Both the position numbers and the translations under genes were made by a program. This document shows positions 1 through 64,000 of a stretch of 64,000 nucleotides of DNA, in pieces. This DNA is from Trichoplax sp. H2 (lineage: Eukaryota), in the NCBI GenBank assembly GCA_003344405.1, contig NOWV01000133.1, positions 124,001-188,000 on the forward strand. Reading direction: 5' to 3'. The notes under the pieces were generated by a model. It made no database searches. It saw nothing but the letters and a program-made list of their open reading frames with translations, and was not told the origin of the DNA. How positions within the stretch are numbered: the stretch's first letter is position 1; the number at the start of each line of letters is the position of its first letter.

Positions 1-3000
1 TGAGTCACTTTTAGAGGAGTTGGATGCCGCTAAAGAGTTATCTGTACTATTCGACATTGCCGATTCACTAGGATTGGATATTAATGCAACGGATATCTCA
101 GAATTCAAGAATAAGCTTACTCAATGCGTACGTCAGTTGCAGCCTAACGAAAAACAAGTTACATATCATGATGTAAGTACTTGCTTCAATTATTTTTTCG
201 AAAAGTTTATTAACGCTAATTGATCCTTTACTGACACAAAAAATCAATTATAGATACTATATCATCTTTATACCATTTCTATTTCATTTTTATGTGTTGT
301 CACTAACCAACTTTTTGATGAGGTTTACGTCAAGATAAATCTCTCAATTTCTAAAGTCTCTAAGATTCAGTATCCCTTAAATACTCACAAGAACTTAGAT
401 GCCTTTGCTTCTAGGTTATAAAACTAGCCAACTGATTTTATTCAATTATTTACTGAGCTTATATATCTCTCGGAAGTAGCTAACATTGATGAATCGTTTT
501 GCAACAATAATTGTCAATAATAATTATCGATACTGACATCTACTGATTGATTCTATATAATTGGACCTCAGTATGTCCATTCACAGAGTCATTTCAGTAC
601 ACCTGCTATCTACTATTAGTCAGAATTCTGTTACAAGAGCTTGTACTGTATTCGATTACTATAAAAGAATTTTATTACAGTACAATAAAAAAATTTGGTG
701 TAAAATGTTATAACTCCAGTGATTCCTACTTTAAGCTATTAATTGTAATCTCCTAATATAAATGTTAAAGTCGTAAAGTTTGCTTATTTGATTCTCCACA
801 GTAGTTTGTACCGTAACAGTATTAATGATATCAAATAATATTGAGATGTTTAAAGATCTCACATAAAATATCGCATAAAGTGATTTCACTCTGTAATGGA
901 AAGAGATTTAGCTTATTTTAATTCATTACTAGTTAACACGAAACATTGTCATCTTTAACATTTAGTTATAACATAATATTATTGTCTTTAACATTAATGG
1001 ATATTATATTTATGATAGCCAATCAATAGAAAAGTAACATTCCAACTTGCCTATCTATTACAGCCTCTGGCACAAAATACAAGTAACTAGTTTTTAATAA
1101 TACTACCATTCAAAACTAGTCTTAACTAGCTGAGCAATCTCTTCAAAAAGAGTGCTAAACTTTGTCAAAATCTATCGATTATATTATATACGATACTTTA
1201 TGAAATAAGAATTGATCTAACTTTGATAAAAGTATCGCATAAAATAATCGTCTTAGATTATATAGTTTTTATAAAATAAGGCTTCTATGGCAAAATTTAA
1301 GATTAGTGAAGTAATAATTAGTTTAGAACAATAATCCAATCTAAATTGTCCTGAGCTCAAACAAAGGGAAGTCTAATCTAGGTTCATCTGTGTCGTTGTT
1401 AAATGGATTTCCTTTAGTCAAATTACGGCAACAAAGTTGTTTACAATCAGACGTGAATCATTGAACAGGATGCTTTTCCATAAATAGATCATCACTATGT
1501 TTTGCAATATAAATGAATCTGCTTTAAAATATCGCTACTCTTCTGTTAATGTTCAATATCACAAGATTCTGAGCATCTTCACAATTACAGCACTCAAGTC
1601 ACATCAACCTTGTACCATAATTAGTTGACTGGCTAATATTAGCAATCAATAATTTCTAATATGGTATTTAGCATTCACCTAATATTAGTGGCGGGTAATG
1701 AGCTAGTCACGGTAATAACTATTCTTAGAAACATAACTATATCAAAAATAGCTATCAATGCAATTGAATATAAATTCGTACTCAATCGGGTACACCTGCA
1801 TTATCAAACCGATATACAGCGTTCATGAGTAGAATCTATGGATATTCATTCTAGGATTGCTAGCATTGCCATGAAATTGATATCCTAGTTCTCAATCAAG
1901 CATCGAACTTATCATGTAGCAATAATTACTAATTTGTCGATTGTTGCTAATTATTTGAAGGAATCTGAAGAAGTGGTTTTCAATGCTTCTACATCTAATG
2001 AAACAACGTTTTATGAATTTTCATGTTGATATGTACGCATAGATAAACTATTAGTATTTTACGAAGCTTTCTTGAAATAAAGTATTGAATTTTTTACCAA
2101 TCAAATAAATTAGAAGAAAATAGCAATCACCAACAGCTTAACATTTAGTAATGCTAATCAATTAATTCACAATAGCTATAATTTAATGCAACAAGAAAAT
2201 TTAGGGCTAGTTCTTAATATAACTAAATCGTCTAACTTATTTATATGGAATGGTAATCACTAATCTTTTATCTAGCTTATTATTATAATTATAACATTTA
2301 ATATTCATTCACGATCAAAGCTTGCTATTTGATGTCCCAATTTTAATTCTCACGTAAAGTTTTTATTACTTTTCTGTAATAACTTCTTAATAACTAAATT
2401 TATGATTAATTTATGTTTAATTTTTTTACAGCAAATTAAGAAATTAAATGTTATTAGAAATGATGATGATAAAGCAAGTAAGGCGCTATCAGCTCTGCAA
2501 GCAGATATTAACGATATGGAAAAGAAATTTGATAAGTTACTTCCTTGCGGAATAAATGGGCTTAAGATGGAATGCCCGGATAAAAATGAACAAAAGGACA
2601 ATTCAAAAATATTAGACGATTTTAAATATCCTATTCTTGTTACGGGTACTACGAACTATAGTCGCTACTATGCCATCATTTTTTGCCCTTAAAATCTAAC
2701 TTTAAATGCTTAAGTAAATATAGAATACCTAAGAAAAATGTTTAATAAGATATTTATGAGAATATAAACTGATCTTGAAATAAATTCTTAGGCGAAACTA
2801 GCGCTGGAAAATCTTCATTGCTAAACTATCTGCTTGGCTTTGATTTATTACGGAATCATACACTAAGTTGTACGAATAGAATATGCGAAATAATGTACGG
2901 AGAAGAGCCAAAAATTAGCATAATAAACGTTAATGATGATAGTCAACTCTTTACTAGAAGTTGGACACTGGATGAAAAAGATATTGCTAAAAGAGAAATT

Positions 3001-6000
3001 CAATCATTGACAGCAGAAACAGGTCTTATACAGGGCTCCAACGAAAGCAAAGAAATAAAAATCGATGGTATTGCGGCAAATATATTGGTTAGGATTTATT
3101 GGCCATCAGAATTTTTAAAGGTAACCTACAAACAATTCTTACTTTCAAGTGAAATAGGATTATGATTATTGTGGGAATATTTAGCTAATAACTTGTCCAA
3201 AGACATCGAGTGATCTAATTCTGTATTCTTTAGAGAATATTATTTCGCATGGAGACTTATAATGCGGCAGAGTATATCTTATTCTGTATAAGTTTACTAA
3301 ATAATAATAAAGTTAAACCTACTGAAACTTAAGATAAAAATCTGCTTTTAGTACAATATTTAAAACGTTCATCTAAGCTAGTTTATAATAATAGAGCAGT
3401 AAAACACGCGATACTATCTCTAAACTTCTATGATTTCTATCTAAATCAAATCATCAAAGGTTCTCCTTATACGTGCTCGATGCTTACATCGAGTTAGTAA
3501 ATAATTTTCCCCGTAAATACTTGTATGATTGCAAGCATGAAAGATTGAATTATTAATTGCTTTACGCTATAGAGTCATGGGAATTGCAGTATGCTATTAT
3601 TACCTCTTTAATTCAAAAATCCGTCATTTTGCAAAATAAATATATTTTAGAGTGGCTTACAAATTGTCGACAGTCCAGGAATTGGCGAAGAAATTGAGAA
3701 TCCGAAAGCCTTGAAAAATTATATCTTTAAAGCTGTTGCCTACATTATTGTCATTAATGCTGCTAATGCTGGAGGGATTCAGGAGGAAAGGGTAAAGTAC
3801 ATGTCGTACTATATATACGTTTTGCATTGAGGGAGGCGATTTGTTTAATGGTCTAACTAATGTCTGATCACGGCTTTCTTCAACACAATTATACTTAGCT
3901 TCAATTATTACTACAACAAATATCGGGCGTACTGAGACAGAGTGGTTATTTTAATCCCTCTATGGCTCTATTCATATGCAATAAGTGGGATTCTGTAAAT
4001 TCTACTGAAAGAAAGGAGGTAAAAGCTTACAGCTTAAAAAAACTAAGAAAGTATTGGGCTGGAATAAAGGAGTCTCAAGTAATCTTCCTCTCTACCAAAG
4101 AGTTATTAACGGCTAGAGCATGTAATGAAGATGTACTAATTCCACCAGAAGCTGTACAACTATTTGAAAGGCTTAATGTCATGGTTCCACTTAGCCGTCA
4201 ACAACAGTTATTTAAAATTTATTGGTAGGTCACAAGCAAAATTAAGATTAGTGAAAACGTGCTAAGATATACCGTATAATTGTTTATCGGTACATGTTGG
4301 AATTTACAACAGTATTGCTGTATTTAAACACTTTAATATTATGTTTTCGCCTTTACTTTTAGCTCAATGGTTGCTCCCGTTGAAGGAGTGCTGGAAACGT
4401 GTAGAAGCTATCTTATGAAAGCACAATTAAAAAAGGACAATCGAAAAAAAGCTAAATTTATGCTAAAACAGTTACAAAACATTATTAAAGAGTCTTCTAA
4501 GGAATTAGCAAAGAAAAAGAATGCATTAATTAATGATAGTGTGAAAAGATATCAGGAATTTGTTCAAGGTTTGAATAATGATTCTATAGTCAATTGGTCA
4601 AAAAATGACCTTTTAGACGAAGAATTAGAAGAAAATGATTCGAAGAAATTACAAGAAAATGTTGTTAACAAAGTTACGCAACGATTAAATTGTCATCTGA
4701 AATACATTGCTACAGAAATACAAAAAGATCTTTGGGTTGTTAGAGAATTGTTACGAAAAGAATATATTACTAGGCTTAATAATGTTACTGATCAATCACA
4801 ATTTAACTTGATTGAAACTAGTGGTGTCGAATTTAGTACTCATGTTGACAATTTCTACTTAGACGAAACATTTAAATATTCTATAATATCACAATCATAT
4901 AAATTACGCGATATATGGCCTAACACGATCACGAGTAAAGGCTCTCCACTACATTATTTTGGGAAATCGCAAAATCGATTAGAGATTCAGAAGTTTAAAG
5001 AAAACAAAACTGAAATATTGCAACAGTATACACTAATGATTCTTGAATATATTGCTTCAGATAATTTTGCGGAAAAATTAATTATTAAAAAATTTTATTC
5101 CTTAATAACTGCCTTACTAGATAATGTGGAAAATAGCGTATTAGAATCTTCACAGCGTAAAATTAAATTTATCAAGAAAATTTTGGCCGATAAATCGGAT
5201 AAAGAAATTAACAGAATTTATCTACCAATTAAAGATGAAGCTAAGAAACAATTGAGAAAATTGCATAAATTTTATTTACAACATTTAAGCGAATCAGCGA
5301 TTAAATTTGAAGATCTGCAGGAATGTCATACAGAATCTGCTCCATTATCTGTCGGTTTAAAAGTAAACTTATATCGGAAGAAGCTGTGTGAAAATGATAC
5401 AGTAAATAACGTAATTATTCAAGCTCCGGTTAATGAGTCAATGCATGATATGCAAGATTTTATTAACGACTGCTATATCATCAGGTAACTCATGAATATT
5501 TTTATAACATAATAATTTTATGAACAGTAAATCTAATTTTCCTCACGTGCATTACCATACATTTATTGACGGGTGTTCAAACTACTGCTATGTTGCATTT
5601 GATATATCTTTAAATTTCTCATTATAATTAGCACACTAGAATCCAGGAATATCGCAAAATTTCTAGGTATTTGCTATGTTTCATCCCCAGAAATAACGGC
5701 TATTGGCATTTTTGAAGATTGCCATGAAACTTTATATGAGCTAATCCTATATAATCAAACTATTATTGGTGAAAATGATGCAGCTATTACTCGATTGAAT
5801 AAGATTTATTCCTTTGTTATCCAAATTATACAAGGAATTAAGTATTTACATGAGAACGACCTAATTCATGGACATTTGACAGCCGGAAATATTTTGGTAA
5901 ATTGTATAGCAAATTATAATTACAATTTTTTAAATATAGGGTATCATAGTTATTCAATATATTTGATTTGCAAATTATTTTAAAGAAAAAGCCGTCATCA

Positions 6001-6654
6001 GTTCTATAGCAAAACATATGTTATAATTAAATTTCTCTAATGAAAACAAAATTATTAATTAATTAATTATTTACGTTAGATTTATCGACGAAAAGATCAC
6101 TATAAAATAAAGCTGTGCCATGCAATAAAGCATTGCACAATCTACCCGAATGTTCAATTCGAGAAATCAATAATCCATTATTTAGGACCAGAAGTCTTAA
6201 AAAGTAATTACATGAATGTTTATTAACGTATTAGCTTAATCATAGACCTAGAAGTATTAGAATAATAGCTGCAGTGCTCTAACTCCTTATATAAACCGAA
6301 TATATTTAATAATTCTCTAATAATCAACCTATTTCTCCTCCTCCGGGCATTTCACTAAATTTAATTAATTTTATTTTAGATCACAGCTTTCAAGAAGCTT
6401 CAGATATCTACAGCTTTGCGGTGTTATTCTGGGAGATATGGTATTGGAAATTGATAGCTAATCTGTTTAACTGGAATATTTATACTGATTATGACGAAAA
6501 AAAGAAGTACTTATTTGCAGCAAGTGCATTAATTCCTGAATTTCATGAAAATATGCTGAATATATGTGTCCAATCCCTGTCTGCTAATCCTGACGATAGA
6601 CCGACTATAAATTTCTGGGAAGAAAAGCTAGATGAAGCTGCAAAGTTACACTAA
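1..6654 (+). CDS. Gene A (family P): dynamin-like GTPase fused to C-terminal pseudokinase, DSTYK-like architecture; 5' end lies outside the window
   Basis: Exons <1-172, 2432-2645, 2792-3120, 3651-3791, 3899-4224, 4363-5484, 5632-5896, 6080-6203, 6380-6654 have GT-AG boundaries and join in frame (~988 aa visible). Motifs: G1 GETSAGKS, G3 DSPG, G4 NKWD; kinase-fold segments GIKYLHENDLIHGHLTAGNIL, YLGPE, SDIYSFAVLFWEI, PDDRP. Confidence 0.9.
320..815 (+). repeat. Diverged direct duplication: gene A intron segment, second copy at ~6815-7235
   Basis: Shared words in the same order: attcagtatcccttaa, acaagaa(c/t)ttaga(t/c)gcctttg, gctaacatt, tatgtccattcacaga(g/a)tcatttcag. Confidence 0.8.
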
Positions 6655-8500: not shown

Positions 8501-10545
8501 TTCTACTACTTGGAATATTCATGATCGGATTTTATCTCACGCCTAGGTCGTGTTATCTACCCTCGCTGTAGTCTTACAAATGGTATACTTTCAAATACTG
8601 ACTGCAATAAAAGCTACTACCGATATTTTTCATATTAATGCTTCGTAATGTCATACTGTTATAACAAATTTGCAATCTTTCGAAATATTATACCTGCCAT
8701 TTTACTGTATTTATATAATAATTCGGTAGATAAAGTGATCCAGGAAATAAACGAAGCTTTACAGGATATTAAAGTTTTTTGCATAATAATTCTAAGACAT
8801 TTTAAAATTATCAGCATAAAAATTCTTATGCTAACATTGAAATTAGTTATTAAACGAAATGTGCTGACCATCTACTGCAAGCTAATCATAACTTATTAAT
8901 GTACTTCATCAAGCCTAATGTACTCTATCTTAGAAACCTTCTGATTTAGCTTTACTAAAAATGCTAGCAATAAATTGTTTTTAATAAATCATGAAAGCTT
9001 TAATCAATTTCCAGATTCTCGAAACGAAATTTTAATCTCAATTCATACTCACAATTAATAAGGTATTTCAAATAGCCTTAGTTTCCATTTTTAAAAATAG
9101 TCTTTTAAATCGTAGTGATATGCTATCGCCATGTTAAAATAGCAATTTATATTCGAACTGTATATTATAAATGTAGAACGAATCTGCCCAATGCAGGCAA
9201 TCGTATACGATATGTAAAAGCTAAAACAACCTATAAACTTCGATCGAAGGTAGCTCTTGGGATTCATTACGAAATACGCAGTAAATGATACTGTGCAAGT
9301 ATGAACTATTAGAATACTCGACATCAGGATAATCGCTTTATGCAGCGATTTAATTTGTAAAACACTTTAACTTATCGTAATCCATTTCCGCTGAGCAAAA
9401 TATATACAGAAAACTGAATACATTAGTAAGCTTACTCGATGGAGCGATTATTGGCTCCGCTAGTTAACAATATTCATTATTTAAATATAAATTACGTCTT
9501 TCAACAGTATAGAGAACATAACCTATGAAAAGCACTAAAACAGAACAGTAATCCTAAATCAAAACCCAGATCAAAATCAAAGGTCCGATCAAAATGTATA
9601 GTTTCATATTCATTTTTGTTTTTGCAAAGTAACAGAACATCTACTGTATTTTTTAATTACAGTTAACAGCAAATTTTATCGCAATTAAAGCACCAATATT
9701 ATAATAACTGAATGCATCGGTTAAAATTGTAATCTTACAATTTAGGATACCATTTAATAAAATATCTTACCTGATATTATTAAATTCTAACATGAATAAG
9801 GTAGCCAGATTCACTATGTGCACATATACAAAGTAAATTATAGTGTAATTAGAATATACTGTAACTATATTTTACTCTTAAATATAGACATGTTGTATTT
9901 ATCTTATATTTAGACATATCTACAGTCCGCTTACTTCACATTCATATATAGGCTACTTTACAGTATTTAGTTATTACAGTCCTCGCTGTTTGCTACAATC
10001 GTCAGCTATGTTGTAACCTGTTATGGTATATGTTGTATCTAATTCTACAATCCTATTCTCTGCTTGTGCTCTATCTTTAAAACTATAAATACCGCCGTTT
10101 TCCACCTCAGAAATCGTTAGTTTCCTGGTTAGTCTTCACACGTTACTCACGACAGCTTGCACGCTGGTCTACCGTAACTACCTCACTGTACTTACTTTAC
10201 TACTTAAAATAAAGTATATTTTTTATACAACTTTTGGTGTACTAATTGTAAATGGCAACTAAATCTCAATCCTCCAAGATATCGAACCCTCCATCACATT
10301 TCATTAGTTGAATATTATAGTAATTAAAAACTTATCAGGACGGCAAATGAGTTTGAGGCTACTAATAATACAATATTAGTAGATTTATTAACTATTGTAC
10401 TCGAAAAATTTCGCTACGTTTAAAAGGTTGATATGAGGCTAGCAGTTGTCTTAATTATCCTATCCCAATTTTTGAAATGAACATAACATTTGGCAGTATA
10501 TCTTTGTCTTACACTTTTAACTCAGTACTTCTTATTCTATATTAG

Positions 10546-10811
10546 ATCGTAACTATGTGAAAGCTTCAGATATTTACAGCTTCGCAATGTTATTTTGGGA
10601 AATTTGGCATTGGAAATCGATAACAGATTTGTTTGACAGGAATATTAATACTGATCAGGGTCCAAAAACAGACGATTTATTTACAACAAATACACTTACC
10701 CCGAAGATTCCTGAAAACTTATATACTACTTGCTTTAATTCCATAGCGACCAATCCTAAAGAAAGACCGGATATTCCATTTTGGCATGATATACTTTCAA
10801 GTGCTAAATAG
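10546..10811 (+). pseudogene. Isolated copy of the family P terminal (kinase C-lobe) exon; paralog remnant or alternative last exon of gene A
   Basis: Intact acceptor (tattag|at) in the same phase as gene A exon 6380; open frame KASDIYSFAMLFWEIWHWK...NPKERPDIPFWHDILSSAK*. No other family P exons seen between 6654 and 10546. Confidence 0.75.
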
Positions 10812-11423: not shown

Positions 11424-13400
11424 AGGACTATCTCTGGACTATATCTTACAGCAAAAGCTCACAGTTTATATATCCTTTGTTACAGAATGAATCGTGCACA
11501 TTACAATCATATCTTGGCAATTAAGTCGCAAGATAACAGTTTATCATCTCGCGAGCTATTCATTATTCACGCATCTAATTAAAGCGCGGTAATGCAACTC
11601 TCACAGTAATAACATAATTAGCGCTATCTATTATTATCATGAAATCTTAATATCAAGATCTCAAAAGTATCAAGACAGTACGTATTGTAAACCTCGTCTA
11701 CAAATAGATATCTTCAAAATCATATAATCTAACATACGAGAACTACTACTCTCGTACAGTCTTATAAACACAATTCAAGCTATATTTGGGGCTGCATTAC
11801 GACATCGCTTAGTGTCTAATGTGCCATCAAGTCTTAGAATCTATTGCTATCGAAAAATTGCAGCATAAATGTTGCGATTTGATCAGCGTAATAATCAATA
11901 GCTATTTTAATATCTTTGTGATAATCTTGGTTTCCTGCAACGATTTCAGCTGCTAATATCCTATTTATCAGACTGTTTAAGTAGGAGATAAGACCATTAC
12001 GAACTAAGTAGGAGCAATTCGTTATAGGTTGGTACAGATGGGTCTAAACCTTCACTTTGCTGTTAAACCAAGTAAACATAATAAATACAAGACAATCACT
12101 ATTAATACCTAACCTATATCCATTTTAAATGTAACTATGGTATAAAATGATTGCGAATACATTACTTGTCACCAATATGTGTGTATAATTCTGTAATAAA
12201 GATACACTAGAGGTATTTCCGGGTCTCATTTTATCTCTAGCTACTAATTTACGCGTAATTCATATTCTAAACCGTACGCGATTATAAAAATAAGATTACA
12301 ACAAAAGCTTGAATCATTCCACAATAAGAATTATGCGGAGCGATGTTTCAAGAATGCAACTTAATGCATAATTTAATAACTGGATTAAAACTAAAGCCAG
12401 AAGACAAAGTCTTGAGTTTGGTGAAGAGGCGTAGAGAATCAAAATTTATAGATTTCGATTTTTTAAAACGCCTCTTTAAGAAAATCTAGATTTTTACATA
12501 GATACTCCTGATCTTCTAAACTATAATAATCACTATAGCATAAACGGATGGGTATCACTGCACTTATTAACCGAACATACATTGGTACACATAAGAGGTT
12601 TCTATTTTTATTATAAAAAGAAGAAATAGCAACAGATATCATTACATTGCCAAAAAATCGCAGTCTTCATTATGTTTAATGTGTACATTGTAGTTCAGCA
12701 AAGCAGCTAATTAGTTTAATTTAATAATGCCACTTGAAATACTACGACAGCACCAGCGAGAGTTATCATAACATACAAGAAATTGATCAAATATTATTCT
12801 ATAATATACCGTAAATGTGATGTTTTAAGGCCCTTATTAAGAAACTGCAGTAACTATAAAATGAATCTAAAACGATGCAAATATTTTTTATTTACAGTAC
12901 GCGTATCTCTCTACTTATAGTTATTTAGACCTAACTCATGTGATAATATTGCATATAGTTTACTCATACTAGAATTAAACGATAAGAACATAGCAGTTTT
13001 ACAATGATATTAAAACGAAAATTGATTCTTCCTTCTATGACTGCAATATAAGTAGCTGGTGATTGAAAAATAAAGACTTAAATCATAATCGAAATTATAA
13101 TTTGAGTATGCTAACTCAGCATGCTACGTAAATTTGAAAGACTTCAATCGTATCCACAAGGGTAACTATGACAAAATATTGATGGACCGGTATCCTGTAT
13201 GGTATTCTACGAGTGTAATACTTACCAGAGCATTAAAAAGATTAAAAGATGCCGAACATCCTAGAGACTTCTGCTAATTACTGTAATTGCATACTTCTAA
13301 AGTATGGTAGTAGTGTGGATTAAAAAACTGTGTTACACGAAATAGTTGATTGTGCCTAATAGAGTAATTATGGATTGTGGCTGGTTTGATGAAATAGTAT

Positions 13401-16400
13401 TCAAGTATTTTTGGTATAACTTGCGCGGACATTATCTATCTCTACCGTAAGTTTCTCAATATCTTCAATCTTACGAACTACAGAATCATTTGATTGAGGA
13501 TTTCTTTTAGTAACTTCCATAGCGAAATCTTCCTTTTTCTCTAAACCCTGAAGTATTTGCTTTTGTTTGCTCTTAATTGACTTTCTAATTGGCTCAGCAT
13601 AAGCCCAAGCCATTTTATTTTCATCTACGTCGGCTAATTCTGTAACAAGTTTAGGCGTCCAATGTTGTAATATATGTAAAACTTTCAGCTTTTGTCTTTT
13701 AATTCTATTTTTAGACCATATCACGTCAGATATTTTAGCAATAATTGCAGAAATTCCAGCAGAGGTTAACCCTACAAGCGAGAAAATGTTTCGCCATGAT
13801 CTCTTTTCTCTAAATGGCGAAGAAGTCATATGGAAATCATAATCATCGCTCAATTCGTGGTCATCCAATTTGAATACATTATCGAAGTTCTTCAATTCCC
13901 GTAAAATGTAATCGTAATATAAATTCATACATTCTCTTATTTTTTCAGAAAAGTACTTAAGTGGGATACATTCTTTTTCCCAGAACGTTAATAGACGCTC
14001 AAATCGATCCAAAAATAAATTGTAGGCAACGTCTGTGATATTAGTAACTCGTCCCCGAATTGGAATATCTTCTAGTTTCCAAGATATCATGCCAGTTTTA
14101 AATTTATCGCTTTGTAAAAAGTCGTTTAAAGAATTGGCAATTTCTTCGACTCCTACATCAAATGTTTTATCAATATCTATGTGGAAATCTTGATTTTCTA
14201 TGACCTTCTTAGCTGATTGAACACTATTTTTTATCGCACGTAAGTGAGTCATCCGATCAGCAGTATTTAAGGAATTTAATTTAGCCATCGTTTTGTAACC
14301 TTTCTTGACCTCTTTCAGAATCGAATTCATCTCACTTATAGATATACAACAAGTAAAAAACACCTATTAATAGGATACTTACTATATCCATTTCGATATT
14401 ATACATGTTCTTTGAGAATAGCTTTATTGACATATGCTGAGTACGATTAATTCAAAAATATTAACTTGCATAGTTATTTGATTAAGTAGGAAATACATAG
14501 AGTATTTAATTAAAAAACGCCCGATACCTGCTATGAATCAATGTTATCTTCTTCAGACTGTCTTCTATTAGTTGAGAAATAAGTGAATAAACTGCTACCA
14601 AATCGTCCGATATGTATCCTGCTTCAAAATGACTTTGTGTCTCCTCAGTTGATAAAAATAATAGTTGTGAATCGCGAAATCCAGGCCAAATTGTTTTCAG
14701 CTTATCTTTAGTGTCTTTTTCAACCGTACTTTTTTCTGCATCTGGGACCTCATCCCATTTATTGCAGATAAAAATAGCTGATTCCGGAGAGAATTTGTTG
14801 AATTTTTCCTTCTCTACATTTCTCATTGTGCTAGTAAGTCTCACAAGCTGTGAATCAGCGAAAACATCTGTTATCTTCGATAGATACCGGAACTTAGATT
14901 ATAATCACTTCGTATTAAATCTGATTATTTTAAAAGCTTACTCGATCTGTATGTATACCACCAGCATTTGCAGAATTGATGACATAAATAATTGAGCATG
15001 CCTTGGGTAAGTACTTTTCGATTTGCTGATTTGCTAAAGATGTTTCCCCAATTCCTGGGCTATCTGCTACGAATATACCGGCCTAATTCAATTTAGAAAG
15101 AATTCCGTATAAACTATTTCTGTCCATGTTTGCTAAATCACAATAAAGGGTATTGGTAACTGTAATAATAACCAGCTAATACCATCTAATAGATTAATAT
15201 TTTTTGAATGTCTAGAAAATAAACTAAACAGTATTATAGTTGCATAATTAAACGTTCCATTAGTCAAATGTTGAATTTTTTCTCATTTGCCTTACAGTAC
15301 TCCGATCACTGTTCTTATCAAATTCAATCGCACTAGACAAACCTTTAAAAAATTAAAATTCCAATAAATTTCGAGCTTTCCAGTTGTTAATTGTGTATCA
15401 TCCGAATCCTCATCAGCAGATTCATCATCTGTAGAGACAGATAATTCGGGTATGTCTTCAATGCCTGTATTGACTTAATCTAGTAGAGAAATCCTTGATA
15501 TTTACCTGCTATATTTGTGAAAAAATTTTTCTTGCCTATCGATCTCATGGCTTCTTTAATCTTTGATTTCATATCGTGAGCATCTTTAATTTGAGTTATT
15601 TGTTCTAATTGTTCCAACTTTTTATTAACTGGATTCCAAGCAAATGGCTTTATGCAAGCATCTGTCGAATAATATAATTCGCATATACATGTTGTTGAAT
15701 GCAAATGACTGGCAGTTAGCAAGGATTCGCCTAGGATTAAATTAATAAAGCTGCTCTTTCCAGCGCTTACTTCTCCTAAATTCATATACAAGTAAAATGT
15801 TAGCTATCATCAAAACCGTAATGTATTTGAGAGAGAATCCACTATGCAGGATAAAATTAAGCAACTATTATTCAATCGACTTGACGCAACTAAACTGACA
15901 GAAGATAAAGTTTATCGTTAAATGGTACAGCTTAAATAGTTTACATGCTAAATCATATACAGTTAGCTACATTTTTGCATTGCAGTATTATTTAATATTT
16001 TATCGAAAAAGGATATTATTAACTATGGTCCATTCTAAATACTGCGTAGGTTACATTTGTTAGTGGAGACCAGGTAAACATAAAAAAACGGAATAAATCG
16101 TTACGCTTAAGCACATAATTGGCCACTTTAGCAAGTATTGCAAACTGTATGCATATTGTTTCTAAATGCGAATTACATATAATAAATGCCTGAATAATGT
16201 GTTGTTGCGGATTATTAGCAATAAATGACTACTATATTGTTATAGTAAAAGATTAGCTATTTTTGATAGACCTGCAACAAGTATTGGATATTCCATGTCG
16301 CGTAATTTGCTAATATATTTGCCTATGTTTTGCAGATAGTGGCGATGCTCATCATTTGCATTGACTATATTAGCAATCTCTGGTTCTAATTTTTGAAAGA

Positions 16401-51395: not shown

Positions 51396-54300
51396 TTATA
51401 TACCACAATCATAACTTTTCAGGACATTATTAATTCCATTCCTGAGCTTACTAATAAGCTCAATCTTATCCATGGCAGCACTCCGCATTGTTGAGTAATC
51501 TATTTGATTAGCTTCGTTAAGGAGAACTTCGTTTGCTTTTAGCTGTTTTATAACCTGCATTCGCGTATGCTTAATAGATTCTTTAATTGGATTAGTGTAG
51601 GCCTTGGCAATCTCTTTAGCTCGATCACCAGTGGCTAATTCTGAAACTACATTGGGTACACTTTGCTGTATAGCAATCAAAATTTTCCTTCTTTGTCTAG
51701 AAATTCCAGTTTTCGACCACATATAACGAGCTAAAACTGCTATAACAACTATAGAAATGACAATACCTATGCCACCTGTTACGCCACCAATTACTCCACC
51801 AATGACGGCAGCACCAACACCTTCAGCTATAGTAAGCCCGATAGCAGCGCCGGCAGCGCTACCGCCAATAGTTCCAGTAACAATACCAACACCAGCATAA
51901 AAATTCCGCCATGATTTACTTGTTTTAGGTGATGAATTGACGTGTAAGTCTCGTAGATCATTAAGATCAGCATCAGCTATTTGCAGCGCATTTTCTAAGC
52001 CCTCCAATACTTTTAGAATACGGCTATAATGCAAGTTTACTGATTCTCGTATTTTATTATAAAATCGCCTGAGTAACCCATTGTCTTCTTCCCAAAACGT
52101 TAATAAGCTAATAAATCGATCATCAAATAAGTTAGTAATGACCTCTTCGATATCAGTGACTTTTTCCCGAATTGGAATATCATCTAAATGCCACTTTGTC
52201 ATACCAACTTCAAATCTATTACTTTTTAGAAACTGAAGCAAAGAAACAGTAATTTCTGCAGTGCCATTATCGATGATTTTTTCGATATTATCATGAAAAT
52301 TTTGGTCTCCTATGGTAGACCTAGCTAATGCGATGTTATTTCTTAGATTGCTTAAGTAAGAGCTCCGAATATCACCTTCTAAGAAGGAGCAATTAGTCAG
52401 CAAGCGGTATCGATTAGCAACAATACCTAATAATGTATGGAGCCAACTGTTTTACGAAAGAAAACATTGAAGGAAGATGGGTTAAATGTAGTATATTATA
52501 ATAATTTTAGACGTATTTATAATCTGAGTCATATAGACAATCGACTATCTTACAAAACGAGCTTTTGCATATCTTACAAATAAGATATTGCAACGGGAGC
52601 CATAATGTTAGTTTAGGTAAAAAAAGCGGATTGATAATATAATTAACATAGTAACCTATGAATTAATAGCTAAATTTTTTTAATTGTAAACTTACCTGGT
52701 ATAATCCACAACTTTCTTCTTCAAGCTTTCTTCTATTAAATGAGCGATAAGAGAATGAAGTACTCGTAAATCATCCGATACGAATCCGGCTTTAAAATGA
52801 TTAGCAGCATTTGTACTCGACAATAATATTAATTGAGAATCATGAAAGCCAGGCCAAATTCGTCTTAACTTTTGTTTAATAGAATTTTCAACAGTATCTC
52901 TGTCTGTCTTTGGAATACTATCCCATTTATTACATATAAAAATAGCTGATTCCGGAGTAAATGTCTTAAATTTTTCTCTTTCCATGTTTTGCTCTTCTAT
53001 TAAAAGTCTAACAAGCTGTAAGTTATGAAAGACATTATTACTGGATAAATAAGTTCATTAATCAATTGTAAGTAAAATTCGATCATTAAAGCTTACTCGA
53101 TCTTCTTGTATGCCGCCAGCATTTTCAGCATTGATGACATAAATAATTGAAGACACCTTTGGTAAATAACATACAATTTGTTCAGTGGCCAACGCTGTTT
53201 CACCAATTCCTGGGCTATCAACTAAGAAGACACCATCCTAACGATTCAGATACAGAAAGAGTCTTACATTAATAATTCTTTATGATACCATTAAAAAACG
53301 TTTAGCTTCTACCCCATTTAAATACTTGACGACAGTAACAGATCATTAATAGTATTTAATACATTGTATTTGTTTGTTTGAGGTTAAAAAACGAACAAAG
53401 TTTACTAATTTAAGATGCTTTATCAGACCTTAGGACGAGTAGCTCACAAGGCAACAATAAAAGATATCCAGGTTCATATACGTTTTAACACACTGCGATA
53501 CAATTATATGCGTTAAATCCGTTAAATACTAGTTTGTTATCTATATCATAAACCTAATAATGAAAAAGCAGGATTATGATCATACAGTAGGCACATTTGC
53601 TACTAAAATGCTATATTTGTACGTATTTGTATCTGTGCTGATATAGAAGCATACGGCGTAGCACACGAATATCTCAAATGCTTTCAAAATAAGAGAAAAA
53701 TATGATAACATAACCGAATGTATTACCAACATAATCCTAAATTATATATCGTCTCAAACGGATTATGATCCTTATCCAGAATTTCTCTATACCAAACCAA
53801 CCTTTAGAAAATCAAACTCCCAGCAAATTTCAAGCTTCCCGTTTGATAGTTTCAAATCTTCAAAATTATTACATTCGACATGCACATCATCAATTGAGGT
53901 AGATAGTAAGGCCAATTCCTCATCATTCGTACTATTTCCATCTAGCCCAGCAAAACCTTGACTGCTTCTTAAGCTGTCCTTGGAGTCTTTTTTTTTCGAT
54001 GTCAAATGCATAACCTTTTGAATCTCAGTCATCAAATCGGAAGTACCATTGATAGGAGTTTCTTCATGAGGCTCTAACTTTTTTTCACTTGCATTCCAAA
54101 TAAAGGATTTTAAGCAGGGATTTGTAGAATAGCGTAATTCACATATACATGTAGTTGTATGTAAGTGACCGACAGGTAACACAGATTGACCTAAAATTAA
54201 ATTGATCAGGCTACTCTTTCCAGCGCTGACCTCGCCTAAAATGTGTTTAGATGAACAATTAATTTTATAAACATCTTGTAAATGTATGTATTGTAACTTA

Positions 54301-55020
54301 TATCGTGTACATAAACCATTTAAAGTTATTTGAATTTCAATAGTGGATAAATAGTACGCATAGAATATTTGTCAAACCTGCGACTAAGATCGGGCATTCC
54401 ATACAATGTAACTGCTTAATATGCTTATTCATATTATCTAGATATTGTTCGTCGAAAGTTTTAACTATTTCCACAAGCTCTGGTTCCAACTCCAGGAAAA
54501 TAAACTGACTTGCTCTTTGTAATAAGTCGATGATTTGAATTCTTGTTTCCTTAAATTTATCGATAGCACTTTTGATCCTTTGCGATGACTACAATAGTTA
54601 AAAGAAAATTGAGATGGAACTCTTGAGGCTTTATCTACGCATGAAACATTATGGTTACGTTGAGATAAGTTTGGTGTATGATTAATTAAATAAATTAAGT
54701 AGTATTTCAAACATAATACCACTACATGTAATTCACAACGGACGATCGCGCCACCGGAAGCATCAAAAACTGTTATCGAATTTTATTGAGCTAAATTGAA
54801 AGGTTTAAAATTGTCATTTTCACCAAAAATTTGCAATATTTACCGCAGAGCGTTGATAATTTTCGATGGTTTCATTCCTTCGAAGTAAATCTAGCCGTTC
54901 TTTAAAATCTTGCACAGTTTTTAACCCTTTGGTACTGATACCATACTTTTTACATACATTTCTTCCAGCTTTTAAGCTTTGTATTTCATCGACCTCATTT
55001 TGAGTTATTATGTATCCCAT
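51396..55020 (-). CDS. Gene G (family Z): dynamin-like GTPase with glycine-zipper hairpin, ~777 aa
   Basis: Exons 55020-54844, 54588-54378, 54235-53802, 53237-53097, 53015-52696, 52446-51396 are in frame. GEVSAGKS, DSPG, NKWD. Confidence 0.92.
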
Positions 55021-57639
55021 CCTGGACCAATAAACCTAATAACAGCTGACTTTATTCCAAGTCAAAATACCGTTTAATTCTGTCACTCGATTACTCCTTC
55101 ATTGAAAATATAAAGATAAAAAGGATGATTTAATTGTCAACTTTAGGTGTCTTTAACGAATGAGGGGAAATGAATGCATGCAAGTTTGATAAATAAAAAG
55201 CGTATCATGACTATTATTTTAAATAAGGTTCAGCGTCTAAACGTTAGAATTGGTAAGAGTTTGCGGCACATACAGACAGCGTGTGTATTGCATACAGTTT
55301 TTCAACTATTAGAATAAAGGAGCAACCTTCAAACTTATTTTTTGCTGCTGCAGCTACGATGTGGTGCTAAAATAAAGTTTACAGCATATCAGATTAACTT
55401 TAAACATAAAATTAAATTTCAAGTTATCCTTGAATGACTATTCAATGAATACCTCGATATACGCAAGTCATCAATGGTATAATTTTCACTCAAATCACGA
55501 TGAATTGGGAGCAATAGTATCCACTGCATACAAAAATTAATTGCGAGTATTTCAGTTAATATAGTCGTATTTTGACTGATAGACTGATCGAGCATTGATA
55601 GCTACTTCGTTAATAAGATGTTTTATTTTATACTTTGTTACTTCAATTTTTCTTCAAATCTGGCAAATAAGCTCGATGTGATGTCAAGCAGTAATGCTTG
55701 TATCTAGAAACCTTTCGAGACTGAGATTTATTCGGCAAATTCAATGCACTCCTACCCTTACGTGTGCAATCACGTTTATTGCTTGGCAGTAGTGTAAACA
55801 ATAATATATAAATTATGATTTACTTTTCGAAAGTATTTATTCTACGGTTTAGTATTATCCTAGAAATACGTATATTACAACGTTTCTAAATGCCCATGAA
55901 CAACAACAGAAGGCGGAAGTTGAAAGTCATTTTAAATAAAATAGATTTAAAGGGTAGCATTTGACTGTAGCACGGGCATCGCAATCAAACTCGTACTATC
56001 TGTACATCAATTTCATGATATTCTTGCCAAACATTGAAATATTAAAGTATTTCACCAGACCAACTTCTGCGTAATACGTCATCGATCATTTTAACAGCTT
56101 AGAGTAATATCAAATCGAAAGTAATACAGTACTATATCTCTCTAAAGACTGTCAATATATCATGTTTAGTTCACGATCAAATCACAATTAATGCAATCTT
56201 TAAAATTGATAAAGTTCCTCGGCTGCAACCTATGTGATATATTGTAGTAGTAAGTTCATGTCATGTCGGTTAAAATTGCTGCTATAAGGATTCATACAGT
56301 ATTACGATGATCATTATTTATTAGTTATAGAGAGCGTTTTGTTGTCGGTAGTATCGATGGTGATTGCTGGTGATGTAGACTAAATTACTCTTAGAGTGTA
56401 GTAATAAATCCCTATCCAGAGATGCATTTTACCGTACTACGATGCCGTATCGCTTTTATTCCATTTCCATCTCTGTACAAGCTCGAGTAGACAATAATTT
56501 GGGAAAATAAAATTGTAGTCTCATTTTTTAGGGCGTGACTAATTGCAATAGAAAAAATATTCTTCTATCAGATATACAGTATAATGAGCGATAAAACATT
56601 TTACAAATTAATGTTCCCCTTCTTAAGGAAAAAAGAAAGCATGATTAAACTTGATGGAGCAATAGCCTTTGACATAGTCGTATCTGAATCGTTATTCTAT
56701 AAATAATTTAATTAAAAGTGGTCAAATTAATCGCACATCAGCAAGGACTACAAGGTGATGCATTGATTGTATTATAATTTATTCTTCGAAATTTCTGTCC
56801 GCTTAACATTAGCGTGTTATTATGGCAAAGGTCGACCAAACAAAATATTTCAAAATTGAATGCTGAACACGTCTAATTCTTAATCGATTGTAAGGCTACG
56901 TAGTGACCAAACAATTTTTAGTTACGCCTATCATGTCTGTAGAATAAAGGCTGGCCCTATCTGCTCGGTTTCAAACAGCTACTAACTTTAGCAGATTGGA
57001 GTTGTAATTTTAGAATCATCGCCACTCCATTTTCTAGATTAGAGTACGCGTATAAGTTAGTACTGATAAGTGTTATCGTAGTTTAAGGAGGAGGTTAACG
57101 ATGCATTTGAAATCCGCTTAAGATAAAAGTAATCTGCTTACAGGAAATTTACGGTCGACCATTTCAACAGTACAGCATGATGAAATCGTTATGATGTAAA
57201 AACTCTAAATTGGAGTGTCAAGTTTATTATGCTTTCATGGTAACTATCTCTACTATACAGTACTTCAATATTTATTTGTATAATTAAAGATAAGATTATT
57301 GAATGCCTTGTTTATTACCAACAAAATACCCTACTACACTTATTTCGATATTCATTAGCCGTTCAATTTCATGGAATCATGACTATTTATAAGAATTGCA
57401 GTAGAAACTTTAACGTATACGTAGTTGTATTGCAATCAGGCTTGACTCTATTTACTCCGCATTCAATAGTTCATTATACAGTTATTAAATTACGCACCTG
57501 CTCTATTTCTACCGAAACGATGAAGACGTTCAATCAATCAGACTACATTACAAATATATCCATTTCAAGGCTACTAGCAAGCAATGCTGCAGAATCTTTC
57601 AAAATTAGCAACCAATCAACCGCATCAAGTTATCACGAC

Positions 57640-58440: not shown

Positions 58441-59444
58441 TACACTACTGTATATCAACTCAACCATGATAGACTGTGGCAAAATGGCAAAGTCATAACT
58501 TACGGTTATTTTATAGAGGTCTGCTAGTATGATGATAAAAAGTTGGAGAAGATCTTGAATAATGATGGTGCTATACAATTGGGGCATCAATTAAAATAGA
58601 CGGCCTACAAATTTTCACGAATTTCGATGATGAAAAGTGATGTTGAAATAAACAATCCAGCGCTTGCAACGATGGAATATCGGCAAACCATTTTACAAGT
58701 TACGTCATACTGTGAGACCGGTCAACATCGTCGATGTGTTCAAACCCCCTGGTCCAGTGCCCAGGGTACAGTACACAGTTCGGTACAGTACTGTGCACTG
58801 TACACTGTACTGTACACGACGGCCATCCTCTCCGGCGATATGGACTTCAGTAGCAAAATCAGGTCTTTTTGCGCATGAGTAGTCCAGAGTAGCGATATAC
58901 AGTACTGTCATGGTACCGTACAGTATCGGACAGACCGATACATGATCCTTCTAGGGTCTGGGTGAGCATTGGTGAACAAGAAACGATAAACGCCAGCGGA
59001 GATTGCTGCCAGTTCCCAATATAAACTGCCAGAATCCACTTCAAATACAAACTCTCGAGAGAGAAATCGATCGATATCGATTTTAGCCTAGTTAAACTAA
59101 TCTCTACTATTGTAATTAAAGTCTTTTCAACGCCAATGGATTCTTCTGCTTCCTTTCCGTTTAAGCCATCATCATCCATTCAATGAGGAAACAACCTGGT
59201 CAACATTGATCACCATAATGAATAACACAGGTAAAAACTTGCATGGACTCGTCTACCTACTAAATTTAGTCAGGTATTTGTCAGAGAAAGGGAATCTCTC
59301 TTACAAGCCCTTCCTCTAGTCATGTTACTCTATTTATAGTCTAACGCATTATCAATACAATGGCTGATAAACTATATTTTACCCAATGAGAATATTGCTA
59401 TCATTCCTAATTTAAAACCCTAATATTCATTACAATGACAAAGA

Positions 59445-59930
59445 ATTCTGGCTGATCATAATTCAATCTTAGCTGAACTGGAAGTAGTTACTAAAACTGC
59501 TAAATTGAGCCTGTTATCTAGATGTATATATACTGAACATATCAAATAGGAGGCTACTTCATTTCAGAATAACCTTTAAAATTAGGCTATAAATGAGAGA
59601 GAGAATCCTAACTTGTCCCAATTCAATCTCAGTTGGAGCAATCGTAGCCAAACTCGAAACGGTTACGAAAGTCAATAAAGTTTTTACGATAGTATGCTGA
59701 TAATGTGATATTACATTTGTACGCCTTCCTCACAGCTCGCTCTAGATTCGCTCTAAATGCCTATACTAGGCATATCAAAATAGAGAAAGCTGCTTCATTT
59801 TAGAATAATTTCTAAAATTCGATTATAGATCAGAAACAATTCTAATATATCCTAATTGAATTTTAGTTGAATCACTTTTAGCTGAAATTGAAGCAGTTAC
59901 TGAAGTCGATGAAGTTTTCGATATTGCCGA
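59445..59930 (+). repeat. Tandem partial duplications of the intron end and exon start of gene H
   Basis: catatcaaa...cttcatt...agaataa block at ~59530 and ~59765; exon-start copies ttagctgaactggaagtagttact (~59470), gtagccaaactcgaaacggttacg (~59645) and intact ttagctgaaattgaagcagttact (~59880). Confidence 0.75.
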
Positions 59931-62900
59931 TCGATTGGAATTAGATGTTGATGGAGATGATTTCTCATCATTAAAGATTCAAGTTAAGCAGCATTTACTC
60001 CAACTGCTGTCCGATACAGATCAAACTACGTATCTAGAAGTAAGTAATAACTACAACTAACTTCATAAGTACTTTCAGCTAAATACAAATAGCTAGATAT
60101 GAGCTAATATTGTAATTGTATGCCTTTACTTCTATTATCTTATCTCCGGAAAAATATCTTTACCCATGATCGACGTAATGATACTAACGTTATTAAGATC
60201 AACTACTTATTCTTAAAACTGTCATAGATTGCAGCCTTTATGGTAGCATTAGCAAATAATAACAATTATCATTTGCTGATGCTAAATCTAAATAATATTG
60301 TCATAAATACCTGGCTATTACTTACAGTACGGTAATCTCGTTGAACTTCTTCTCAATTTTTTCGATATAAATAAAAGCATCGTACACCATCAGATGCAAA
60401 TTAACCTAATCAATTTTAACATTCTCTTCACAGTCTACAGTACATTACAAGTAATATTACCAGCTATTCAATGATAGCAAATCACGTAAAATATACACGT
60501 ATATACGGTATACTATACGTTAACTATGGTCGCTTATGTTGTTGTTGTACTGTAGTATCTACTCATCATCAACCAGCCTCGTTTCATTCAAAGTGTAACA
60601 CCACAAAGATTGCATTGATATTGCTACATCGTCTCGACTTGAAGTAATCTTTACTTATACAATTAATTTTCTGTAGGAGGTTAAGAAGGTAAATGCTGTA
60701 AGTGTTGATGACAATGAAGCTAGAAACACATTATCAAAACTTTACGCAAGTATTAAAGCCCTAGCGGAGAAGTTTGATAAATCGTTTGCCGGTGGAAGCA
60801 ACTATCCTTGTAAGGAATACGTGGAAGATATGCAAAGTGATTATTCCTTACTATTGGAAGAATTTAAATATCCAATTCTTGTTACGGGTAAACGATTACA
60901 ATTATTTCTAAATTAGTAATATTGCACCCTTGTATGCCGTTGAAATGTGAATTTATGGTGAACTTTAACCATGAGTATCTCGGTTTCGATTATAAGTTTT
61001 AGTGTACGTATGTTTAGTTAAATTCAAAATTGATTGCTATGCTAATAGGTCTTGCATTAAATATTAGGTGAAACTAGCGCTGGGAAGTCTTCCTTACTAA
61101 ACTATCTACTTGGCGTTGATTTATTATCGGTTCACACACTAAGTTGTACTAATAGAATATGTGAAATAACGTACGGAGAAGAGCCAAAAATTAAATTGGT
61201 AAATGCCTACGATGGCAAAGTGTTCTATACTGAAAGTTGGACCGCAGACAATAAGGACATTGCTATAAAAGAAATTCAGTCTCTAATATCTGAAAGGGAA
61301 ACTCTGCAAGGCTCTAATAGTAATCATGAAATGAAGTCAAGTGAAGACGCACCTTATTCACTAGTTAGAATATATTGGCCATCTGAATTTCTTGAGGTAC
61401 TGTGGCAATTGTTGTAGTTTTTAATGACGTATATCGCATTAGTAGCATTATGTATCATTTTTTATTTATTATGCGTTTACCTATATAGAAAGATAAATAA
61501 ATTTTCTTACTCTCTTTAATTACAATCTTATGAATCATTTACAAAGTTGTAAAAACTTTTCGCAACGAATACTATCGTAATAAGATTTAGATCAAAATGC
61601 ACATTTTATAAATACACTAGGATATGTATACTATACAGTGTATGTCGCTATGTCAAGAATATTCACAAGTGCACCATCGGCGTAGGCCGAGACTATAAAA
61701 GTCGAGCACTAGCTTAGCTGCTCAGTTCCATTTAGTCACTTGCAGGATCACTTGACTATTATTGCTAAGAATATTCTTACCTTTTTCTTTAGTACATTTT
61801 ACGACTAAGATTAACGTAAATAAAATGAAGTATTTAAACCTATTACTCATTAGTAGCTTATTTGTGTAGCTGAGAGTTAGTTCAACTACGATAGGTCCCT
61901 AAGTTAGTTGGAAACACAAGTACTAGTGAAGATAGTATTTAAGACCCGTTTTCTAGTTACAAAGGAGATTTGTAACAAATAGCAACTTGAATATTTATAT
62001 AGTAATTGATATACTTATTTACTATAGTTTACCAGACTGTATTGGAACAACCATGATTCATAATCGTGTAGAGTGATCTAAATAATTTGTAAAACATATT
62101 TATTTCCTCAGAGTGGCATACTGGTCGTTGACAGTCCAGGAATTGGTGAGAAGAAAGAAGTACCGCACGCCTTGAGAAGCTACATTTTTAGAGCTGTTGC
62201 GTACATCATTGTCGTCAATTCTGCCAATGCTGGAGGAATTCAGGCAGCTAGGGTAAAGTGCTTAATTATACGTTAATGTAGGAGATTGCGATTTATAAAT
62301 ATCTTTTATTTAATTTTGTTAGCTTCAAAAATTACTACAACAAATATCAGGTGTGCTAAGAAATGATGGGTATTTAAATTTTAATCCTTCTATGGCACTA
62401 TTTATATGTAATAAATGGGATACTGTAGCCGTACCGGAAAGAGAGCTTGTAAAAACTGATAGTATCACCAAGTTGAAGCGGTGCTGGCCAGGTATGATCC
62501 AAACCCAAATAATATTTCTATCCATCAAAGAATTGTTGATGGCTAGAGCCGCCAATAATAATGCATTGGTACCACCCGAAGTTGTGCAACTATTCGAAAT
62601 GCTTCGTGATTTGATTCCTATTAGTCGAAAACAGAAATTATCGAAATCCTACAGGTGAACGTGATTAAACTATTAGCTTAGAAATGGTTATTCAATCTAA
62701 ATTTCAAATATTAAATTTAAAATACTATCTGATTAGAGTTCTGTCTTGGATTAAATAAATCGTATTTAATATTTACTGTTCATTTTTAAGCTTTATGGCT
62801 GCTTTCGTTGAAGGTGTACAAGAAACATGTCGATGTTATCTTCTGAGGGCAAAATCAATGGAGAGCGAACTAAAGGAAGATAAATCAAGATTAAAACTAT

Positions 62901-63978
62901 TGGAAACAACAACGCAAAAGTGTATGAAAGAATTAGTTACGGAAAAAAATGCATTAATAAACGCTCTCATTGCAAAGTATCGGAAATTTGTTGAAAGTCT
63001 GAATAATGAATCCATAGTAAGTTGGTCGGAAAATGACCTTTTAGATAAAGAATTTGATGAAGATAATTTAATGAAATTACAAGAACATGCCGTTCTTAAA
63101 GTTAGGCAACGCTTAAATAATCATTTAGAACTTGTTGCACAAGAGATACATGAAGATCTTCAGATAGCAAAAGACTTATTGTTAGAAAAATTTACCACGA
63201 GACTTGATGAAATTTTTGATCAGACTCAGTCAAAATTAGTTGAATCAGCTGATATCGAAAATGATACACAAACGAATGACTTCTACTTAGATCCAAGAAC
63301 TGGGTATTCGAAATTCTCAGAATTATACGGATTATACGATGTATGGACTAATATGACCGCGGCAAGGAGGGCTGCATTTATCCTTACAAGTCCTGTATGG
63401 GTGGCCCCAGCATTCATAGCTAGCCCTATCTACTATATTACAAAGTTGGTGAAAACCCGAAATCAACAAGAAGAGATTCAGAAATTTAAACAAAACAAAC
63501 CTGAAGAAATGAAAGCTATCACGCTTCTAATTCTTGACCATATCGGTTCAGAAAACTTTGCAAGAAAATTTGTTGTTGAGAAATTTGATTCATTAGCAAC
63601 TTCTCTACTAAACAGTGTTAAAAGTACAATACTAAAATCTTTGCAAAGTAGAATTGATACCATTAAAACGGCTTTAAAGGATAAACGATGCCCTAAAGAA
63701 ATCAACAAGCTTTATAAACCGCTCAAAGAAGATGCTCGAAAACTATTAATAAATTTAAACAACTTTTACTTACAAGAATTAAGTGAATCATCGATTAAAT
63801 TCAAAGATCTACAGGGATTCAATGAAGAATCTACCCCACTGTCATTAGGATTAAAAGTAAAATTATATCGGGCAACGCTGCACAAAAATGATGAAGAAAA
63901 GAACGTTATTATACAAGTCCCTGTTGACAAATCTATGCGTGATATGCATGAATTTGTCAGTAATTGCCAGATTATCAG
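59867..63978 (+). CDS. Gene H (family P): dynamin-like GTPase-pseudokinase, runs off the window end
   Basis: Exons 59867-60039, 60677-60887, 61068-61396, 62112-62252, 62323-62654, 62791-63978 are in frame. GETSAGKS, DSPG, NKWD; kinase N-lobe start LSLGLKVKLY...VIIQVP as in A and E. Confidence 0.9.
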
Positions 63979-64000
63979 GTAACCTTTTAATTAATGCATA

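Follow-up and report, generated by a model that had tools for sequence, protein, structure and literature searches.

A 64-kb window of the Trichoplax sp. H2 genome (by which we mean the whole 64,000-nucleotide stretch analysed, positions 124,001 to 188,000 of contig NOWV01000133.1) carries an array of genes for two types of dynamin-like GTPase, referred to here as Z and P. Six annotated Trichoplax proteins were placed on the window by tblastn, and their exons were located by exact matching; the window frames agree at 99-100% identity with proteins annotated in Trichoplax adhaerens and Trichoplax sp. H2, which identifies the DNA as nuclear, intron-bearing and placozoan. In the protein set used throughout, P1 is P0177, P2 is P0006, P3 is P0004, and P0083 is the upstream paralog TRIADDRAFT_54945. 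The mapped elements are, from left to right:

2..6654, plus strand: P1, a GTPase-pseudokinase gene from exon 2 onward (exact match to P0177).
10521..10808, plus strand: P remnant, the last kinase exon only, with a 96-residue frame still open.
11783..12103, minus strand: Z remnant, part of the stalk (tblastn with P0001 residues 427-526, 34% identity, E 2.9e-9).
13401..16867, minus strand: Z gene, occupying a Z-type slot in the order.
18914..19024, minus strand: possible, weak Z remnant (tblastn with P0001 residues 239-275, 51% identity, E 3e-4).
21917..25231, minus strand: Z gene, six exons matching P0003 (Dynamin_N, E 1.3e-21).
28652..28816, plus strand: psiP, a P gene of which nothing but the N-terminal exon 2 is left (tblastn).
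29580..30947, minus strand: psiZ, exons 1 and 2 and the start of the P-loop joined to the glycine-zipper end of the gene.
35142..40539, plus strand: P2, a GTPase-hairpin-pseudokinase gene (TRIADDRAFT_54951; H2 model of 1016 residues), exon blocks matching P0006.
44538..48285, minus strand: Z gene, mapped exons.
51396..55096, minus strand: Z gene, mapped exons.
58504..59228, no strand assigned: region between the Z gene at 51396..55096 and P3, covered by RNA contigs.
59217..64000, plus strand: P3, a GTPase-hairpin-pseudokinase gene (TRIADDRAFT_54954, 1004-residue model), mapped exons, with kinase exons past the window end.

The gene order along the window is P Z Z psiP psiZ P Z Z P, with three small remnants in addition, and strand follows type throughout: P-type elements lie on the plus strand (5/5) and Z-type elements on the minus strand (7/7). 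An earlier note on this DNA had claimed this order and strand segregation, and the tblastn and exon mapping bear both out. The same note described diverged paralogs and decayed copies, and these are found as 45-58% amino acid identity within each type and as psiP, psiZ and the remnants. Z and P are the only gene types in the window. No further open reading frame of at least 140 residues was found in the spacers within the window, and an Rfam scan of the window gave no match; TRF reported a single 64-base tandem repeat in the spacers and nothing relevant. The G+C content is ~30%, like that of the flanks, and long open frames are few. Comparison of the window with itself reveals 65-78% nucleotide identity between duplicated exons and no alignable or conserved spacer sequence between units; the duplications are therefore old. 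Because tandem copies inherit their strand, the 12/12 concordant strands do not represent 12 independent events. The three head-to-head Z/P gaps (3.4, 4.2-4.3 and 4.2-4.8 kb) are present as the note had stated, but they lend no support to pairing, since tandem duplication of a P/Z block yields the same geometry. A fourth intact P-type gene (TRIADDRAFT_54945, P0083, 1190 residues) is placed left of the window by locus-tag order, and the cluster is thus larger than the window. We read the cluster as a Trichoplax-specific tandem array composed solely of two paralogous GTPase subfamilies of the bacterial dynamin-like protein (BDLP)/mitofusin class, with a probability of roughly 0.55; in the identity and family placement of the window genes we have high confidence.

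Both types contain a Dynamin_N domain (Pfam E values of 4e-21 to 1.8e-23), which scored above the cutoff in five of the five proteins scanned. The motifs GE[VT]SAGKS, DSPG and NKWD are present in all seven intact genes of the window, and across an alignment of 108 family members, every Z and P included, the G1-G4 residues are conserved in no fewer than 90% of rows (G130, G135, K136, S137, T157, D283, P285, G286, N352, W354 and D355). Both subfamilies have thus retained the whole GTP-binding site, and Z and P should bind GTP. A sequence search of the PDB returned BDLP (2j68) first, at 8.6e-10. In Foldseek searches with AlphaFold models, BDLP (2j69, chain 2j69_A) was again the first match, both for the Z gene at 44538..48285 (predicted local distance difference test score [pLDDT] 80.9; E 2.6e-16 over 794 columns) and for P3 (pLDDT 82.7; E 8.5e-15 over 734 columns), followed by IniA, mitofusins, Campylobacter DLP1/2, Fzo1, SynDLP and LeoA; the BDLP alignments span almost all of the non-kinase part of each protein, and entries 5oxf, 6j72 and 4aur also appear in the fold search. 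The predicted fold of Z and P is BDLP-like: a G domain sits on a helical neck and trunk, the tip of which carries a hydrophobic element. Placed between the helices of the trunk, at the position of the BDLP paddle, this element is the least confident part of both models. In Z it is a long glycine-zipper hairpin, and a kinase is absent; in P it is a short proline-rich hairpin, and the protein continues into a C-terminal tyrosine/TKL-like kinase fold that lacks the catalytic residues. By analogy with other members of the class, the tip hairpin would anchor Z and P to membranes, and GTP-dependent dimerisation of the G domains would tether or remodel those membranes.

The order predicted for Z and P, from the G domain through the neck and trunk to a membrane-binding tip, is also that of the BDLP of Nostoc punctiforme (2j68/2j69). 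Sequence identity to that protein is 15-16%, however, and a glycine-zipper segment of ~60 residues stands in Z in place of the paddle, whereas P adds a pseudokinase; the Trichoplax genes are, moreover, eukaryotic, intron-bearing and multi-copy. The proposal in the earlier note that these are dynamin-like GTPases is borne out, and the Dynamin_N scan, the PDB search and Foldseek alike point to the BDLP/mitofusin class. Its account of Z as a glycine-zipper form, with a predicted place in the membrane, is likewise supported; GxxxGxxxG motifs number two in the Z gene at 21917..25231 and five in that at 51396..55096.

At the C-terminus of P, Pfam detects PK_Tyr_Ser-Thr (E 2e-25), and the modelled region matches JAK2-type kinase domains (JAK2 JH1) with a TMt of ~0.7. 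Alignment of P3 (P0004) to FGFR4 reveals that the Lys of VAIK is replaced by Gln and the Asp of HRD by His, and that the Asp of DFG is absent. The same Gln, His and missing DFG Asp are found in P0083 and in P1, whose kinase motifs read NVIIQAP, IHGHLTAGN and KLCHA. P2 likewise has the Gln and no DFG Asp; the HAH of P2 is readable only in the window frame, as the gene model skips it. Across three paralogs, 20-residue windows of the pseudokinase are 0.45-0.6 invariant, compared with 0.38 overall. Judged by their residues, the P kinase domains are pseudokinases; judged by this invariance, they are not decaying, and the kinase fold is conserved as well as other parts of P. P had been described as a GTPase-pseudokinase fusion, and this stands: Dynamin_N and PK_Tyr_Ser-Thr occur together, and the catalytic Lys and Asp residues are gone.

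The structure of P is not confined to Trichoplax. When 1.84 billion representatives were searched with a profile built from three Z proteins, there were 2755 matches at E≤1e-3 and 102 at E≤1e-30. From E 1e-70, the matches are proteins of ~1000 residues with a GETSAGKS P-loop, an APxWxPL-type hairpin and a C-terminal kinase, and the named sources are Branchiostoma, Ptychodera, Glandiceps, Lingula, stony corals, octocorals and many bivalves. These relatives are called 'uncharacterized' or bear automatic names (MAP3K12, 'DSTYK-like', 'mitofusin-1-like', 'Marf-like', 'bacterial dynamin-like protein'), and several paralogs share one scaffold in Stylophora, Oculina and Branchiostoma. Among the ~75 proteins with a named source, none with the full architecture comes from a vertebrate, insect or nematode. 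Invertebrate proteins that join Dynamin_N to a kinase (in Branchiostoma, Dendronephthya [XP_028395813], Stylophora, Acropora and Mytilus) have the same GETSAGKS, DSPG, NKWD, APxWxPL and kinase as P. Many of them keep the K, HRD and D[VLF]G residues, whereas the Trichoplax P proteins have lost these in a manner of their own (Q, HxH and CH). In 79 aligned kinase domains, the Lys is kept in 52 and the HRD Asp in 45. An active-looking group has HRDLKxxN and D[VLF]G; an old pseudokinase group, marked by HMELS..T and GAC, is a clade of 30 rows (support 100) that includes amphioxus, Lingula and scallop sequences. Z-type glycine-zipper forms occur only in placozoan-like sequences among the relatives seen. 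The amphioxus genes BRAFLDRAFT_81321 and BRAFLDRAFT_81322 (P0159 and P0163) carry consecutive locus tags; BRAFLDRAFT_81321 has the motifs of an active kinase and BRAFLDRAFT_81322 those of a pseudokinase. Pairs of a kinase and a pseudokinase member may be common across the family.

On these alignments, Z and P are best described as the placozoan branches of a large marine-invertebrate family of GTPase-hairpin-kinase proteins of ~1000 residues, apparently a previously undescribed animal branch of the BDLP-class GTPases. The architecture of P thus recurs well beyond this locus, in invertebrate proteins that are widespread and may have an active-looking kinase, a pseudokinase or no kinase. The earlier note did not recognise the array as a described system, and a literature search agrees with it: we found no description of an animal dynamin-like GTPase-kinase fusion or of these Trichoplax loci, although supplementary tables may mention them, and the locus tags occur in none of the main texts searched. 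In the portions available, one recent survey of the dynamin superfamily excluded mitofusins and BDLPs (PMC10280142), and another mentions neither a kinase nor Trichoplax (PMC11326297). In a study of Acropora, the gene with the strongest over-expression in one cross is given as a 'bacterial dynamin-like protein', for which the link to this family is putative (PMC13598544).

Z and P are 28-38% identical and have five intron positions in common, with exons of 59/71/145/47/106 residues in Z and ~62/72/109/47/108 residues in P; the identity and the shared introns together argue for common descent. This, and the monophyly of each type (100/100), agrees with the proposal that they form two related families. 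Two quick trees, which like all our trees are unrooted and have no bacterial outgroup, joined Z and P with support in the SH-like approximate likelihood-ratio test of 95 (107 rows, LG+G4, with the partial P0008 left out) and 86 (49 rows, mixture model, in which clade representatives were chosen by hand).

RNA evidence covers the region 44001-64000 only and draws on four of twenty runs, three of which are recorded as RNA. All three RNA runs contain contigs with canonical splice joints in this region. In P3, the splice from 59228 to 59865 and five more introns are confirmed in 3/3 runs, and the joints reveal that 62491-62529 is cut out of the NCBI model in error. For the Z gene at 51396..55096, introns are likewise confirmed, three of them in 3/3 runs, another in 3/3 and another in 2/3; the Z gene at 44538..48285 has spliced contigs in 2/3 runs (introns 46160-46242 and 46383-47126). 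Contigs of the P3 mRNA begin at 58509 or 58627 and reach 59228, with the ATG in exon 1 (ATG AAT AAC ACA G|gt at 59217-59228). One X12 contig links 55095 to 58503 over a 3407-nt CT..AC intron, which on the minus strand has a donor that reads GTAAGT; one side of this contig is only 30 nt long. G+C reaches 0.369 at 58-60 kb, compared with ~0.31 elsewhere. It is possible that Z and P share a first-exon region at 58.5-59.2 kb, which would be a point in favor of pairing, as are the kinase-less hairpin forms of ~630 residues that bivalves have alongside kinase forms.

Several points weigh against an interpretation that goes from common origin to partnership, membrane function and immunity. The hint of a shared promoter comes from one unstranded contig in one run, with its 30-nt side, and the three RNA runs represent one study of a strain diverged by ~1%. 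No conserved regulatory block was seen in the window, where the spacers are unalignable between units. Strand segregation and alternation are expected from tandem duplication of a P/Z block. The more careful tree, a mixture-model analysis, does not join Z and P; its deep nodes are weak, with Trichoplax Z placed beside the long branch P0143 at 66/53 and Trichoplax P at a 43/16 node. Holding Z and P together was not rejected by an approximately unbiased test (ΔlnL 1.25, p 0.43), and with both stems long their sisterhood is not robust. Membrane binding, GTPase activity and hairpin topology of Z and P are predictions, and what bears on immunity is limited to family distribution and copy-number turnover.

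Physical co-operation between Z and P is a tentative proposal to which we give a little less than an even chance. It has to be set beside a plausible though not favored alternative, namely that Z and P are neighbouring paralog families, each forming independent homo-oligomers, and that the layout is the passive product of duplicating a block in which one gene chanced to lie in each orientation. Each type keeps to one strand, as tandem duplicates do, the duplications are old by exon identity and dissimilar spacers, and most members of the dynamin superfamily are homo-oligomers. Co-folding of the Z and P G domains gave 0.60 compared with 0.00 for controls, a weak signal in which hetero- and homodimers are indistinguishable and which may reflect likeness to solved G-G dimers. 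Set against independence, both types are intact side by side in at least four copies each, and the fold matches include 5owv/5oxf, titled 'bacterial dynamin pair'. Adjacent bacterial dynamin-like protein (DLP) paralogs act as hetero-pairs, as in Campylobacter DLP1/DLP2, IniA/IniC and LeoB/C. The likeness is that the bacterial pairs (Campylobacter DLP1/DLP2 [5owv/5oxf], IniA/IniC and E. coli LeoA/B/C) are also two diverged neighbouring paralogs, and it is from them that the notion of a heterotypic tethering machine made by neighbours is taken; they are, however, one-strand operons, whereas in Trichoplax the two genes are several kb from each other, differ in strand and contain introns of their own. 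That the genes are defence genes is improbable in our estimate, and a role in defence or the response to membrane damage rather than in housekeeping, more broadly put, is still unlikely; an immune role of the cluster is speculative. Such a role would fit the turnover of the genes (at least two clear pseudogenes and three remnants), the expansion and clustering of the family in amphioxus, corals and bivalves, lineages rich in innate-immune repertoires, and the restriction of named members to marine invertebrates among the ~75 source-named proteins. Fusions to TK/TKL-type kinases or pseudokinases are common in immune signalling. A Bacillus DLP gives phage resistance, as cited in the available part of PMC11326297. 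It fits less well that the paralogs are old and that the G motifs, zipper and pseudokinase are conserved rather than hypervariable; glycine zippers are also ordinary motifs of tight transmembrane packing. The literature search found no data on expression upon challenge, with the locus tags in no main text searched, and the available Acropora passage concerns a comparison of crosses rather than infection (PMC13598544).

A tandem array of two BDLP/mitofusin-class subfamilies, our preferred reading, also has to be distinguished from two more conventional origins. Were Z and P the Trichoplax mitofusin/Fzo orthologs or duplicates of these, they would be housekeeping genes for organelle fusion; mitofusins do occur among the matches (MFN2 at 5e-7 in the PDB sequence search and ~1e-11 by fold), share the BDLP-like fold with transmembrane anchoring, and lend the names 'mitofusin-1-like' and 'Marf-like' to some relatives. 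The sequence similarity, however, is limited to ~80 residues round the P-loop (query ~106-188), BDLP outranks mitofusin by both sequence and fold, and the nearest relatives, at E 1e-70, are the invertebrate GTPase-kinase proteins. Multiple copies, pseudogenes and patchy taxa are unlike a conserved single-copy housekeeping gene, and copy number, pseudogenes and kinase fusion all separate the Trichoplax genes from mitofusin/Fzo1. We therefore consider this origin very improbable, and the check on housekeeping orthology that had been suggested came out, on the mitofusin side, with neither family a mitofusin ortholog. Recent bacterial transfer or contamination is brought to mind by the automatic H2 name of P0006, 'Bacterial dynamin-like protein', and by Atlas feature look-alikes of Z, which are bacterial DLP clusters at 0.95-0.96. 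The genes, however, have five to eight spliceosomal introns each, confirmed by RNA joints, a G+C content of ~30% like the flanks, and nearest relatives that are animal, and a scan of 185,579 prokaryote genomes for the Z pattern gave 156 pattern matches, 0 of which were confirmed as relatives by tblastn; the chance of a recent bacterial source is practically negligible.

To our knowledge, animal GTPases of the BDLP/mitofusin class have been known essentially as mitofusins. The array described here adds a second animal branch of the class, which is multi-copy and in most members joined to a protein kinase. Should the family prove to sense or reshape membranes and to use its kinase for signalling, it would represent a new link between dynamin mechanochemistry and kinase signalling and, in early-branching animals, a candidate ancient system of defence or membrane repair.

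Vertebrate DSTYK (RIPK5) resembles P in its length and C-terminal kinase. In the Atlas comparison, 17 of the 30 clusters nearest to P3 belong to a chordate DSTYK-headed set (score 0.92, 215/256 features), and chordate DSTYK clusters come next after the family's own. The DSTYK clusters carry kinase families only, without Dynamin_N, and true DSTYK is absent from the 120 listed matches of an octocoral 'DSTYK-like' member. Candidates for DSTYK (P0060, P0074, P0140, P0216 and others) proved to be either truncated or normal members of the family, in which DSPG or NKWD is retained. That the N-terminal region of DSTYK derives from a dynamin-like GTPase is a lead based on the Atlas look-alikes; if true, it would supply a fold and a mechanism for two thirds of a human disease gene, namely its uncharacterised N-terminal part.

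The individual P-type elements differ in completeness. P1 encodes a protein of 993 residues, the short first coding exon of which lies left of the window; the exons within it are 2-172, 2432-2647, 2794-3120, 3651-3791, 3899-4222, 4364-5482, 5630-5896, 6080-6202 and 6382-6651. No hydrophobic segment or hairpin was found in P0177. The P remnant matches P0004 residues 916-996 at 10554-10796 (tblastn, 57% identity, E 1e-23) and is 74% identical in nucleotide sequence to the last exon of P1. In psiP, the match is to P0004 residues 6-60 (tblastn, 56% identity, E 2.7e-12), and tblastn found no other P exon between 25.4 and 29.4 kb. By comparison with P3, the true first exon of P2 probably lies upstream of the mapped blocks. 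The P2 hairpin reads PVWMAPVFIARSIYLIAMLI, and the window frame at 39451-39822 reads LIHAHLTAGNILV, a stretch that the H2 model omits. The upstream paralog P0083 has a low-complexity insert of ~200 residues in its G domain, at the same place as the acidic insert of the Z proteins.

Among the Z-type elements, psiZ has lost ~460 codons by internal deletion and contains one stop. Its tblastn blocks correspond to P0003 residues 12-59, 65-130, 128-169 and 629-768, and the stop falls inside the last block.

Dispersed and local repeats sit in spacers and introns. Outside Z/P coding sequence, the segment at 43367-43653 is an inverted repeat of 8215-8503 (79%), that at 46454-46919 an inverted repeat of 1278-1755 (68%), and that at 6792-7090 a repeat of 297-602 (68%). 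Internal direct repeats of 67-69% occupy 57624-58399.

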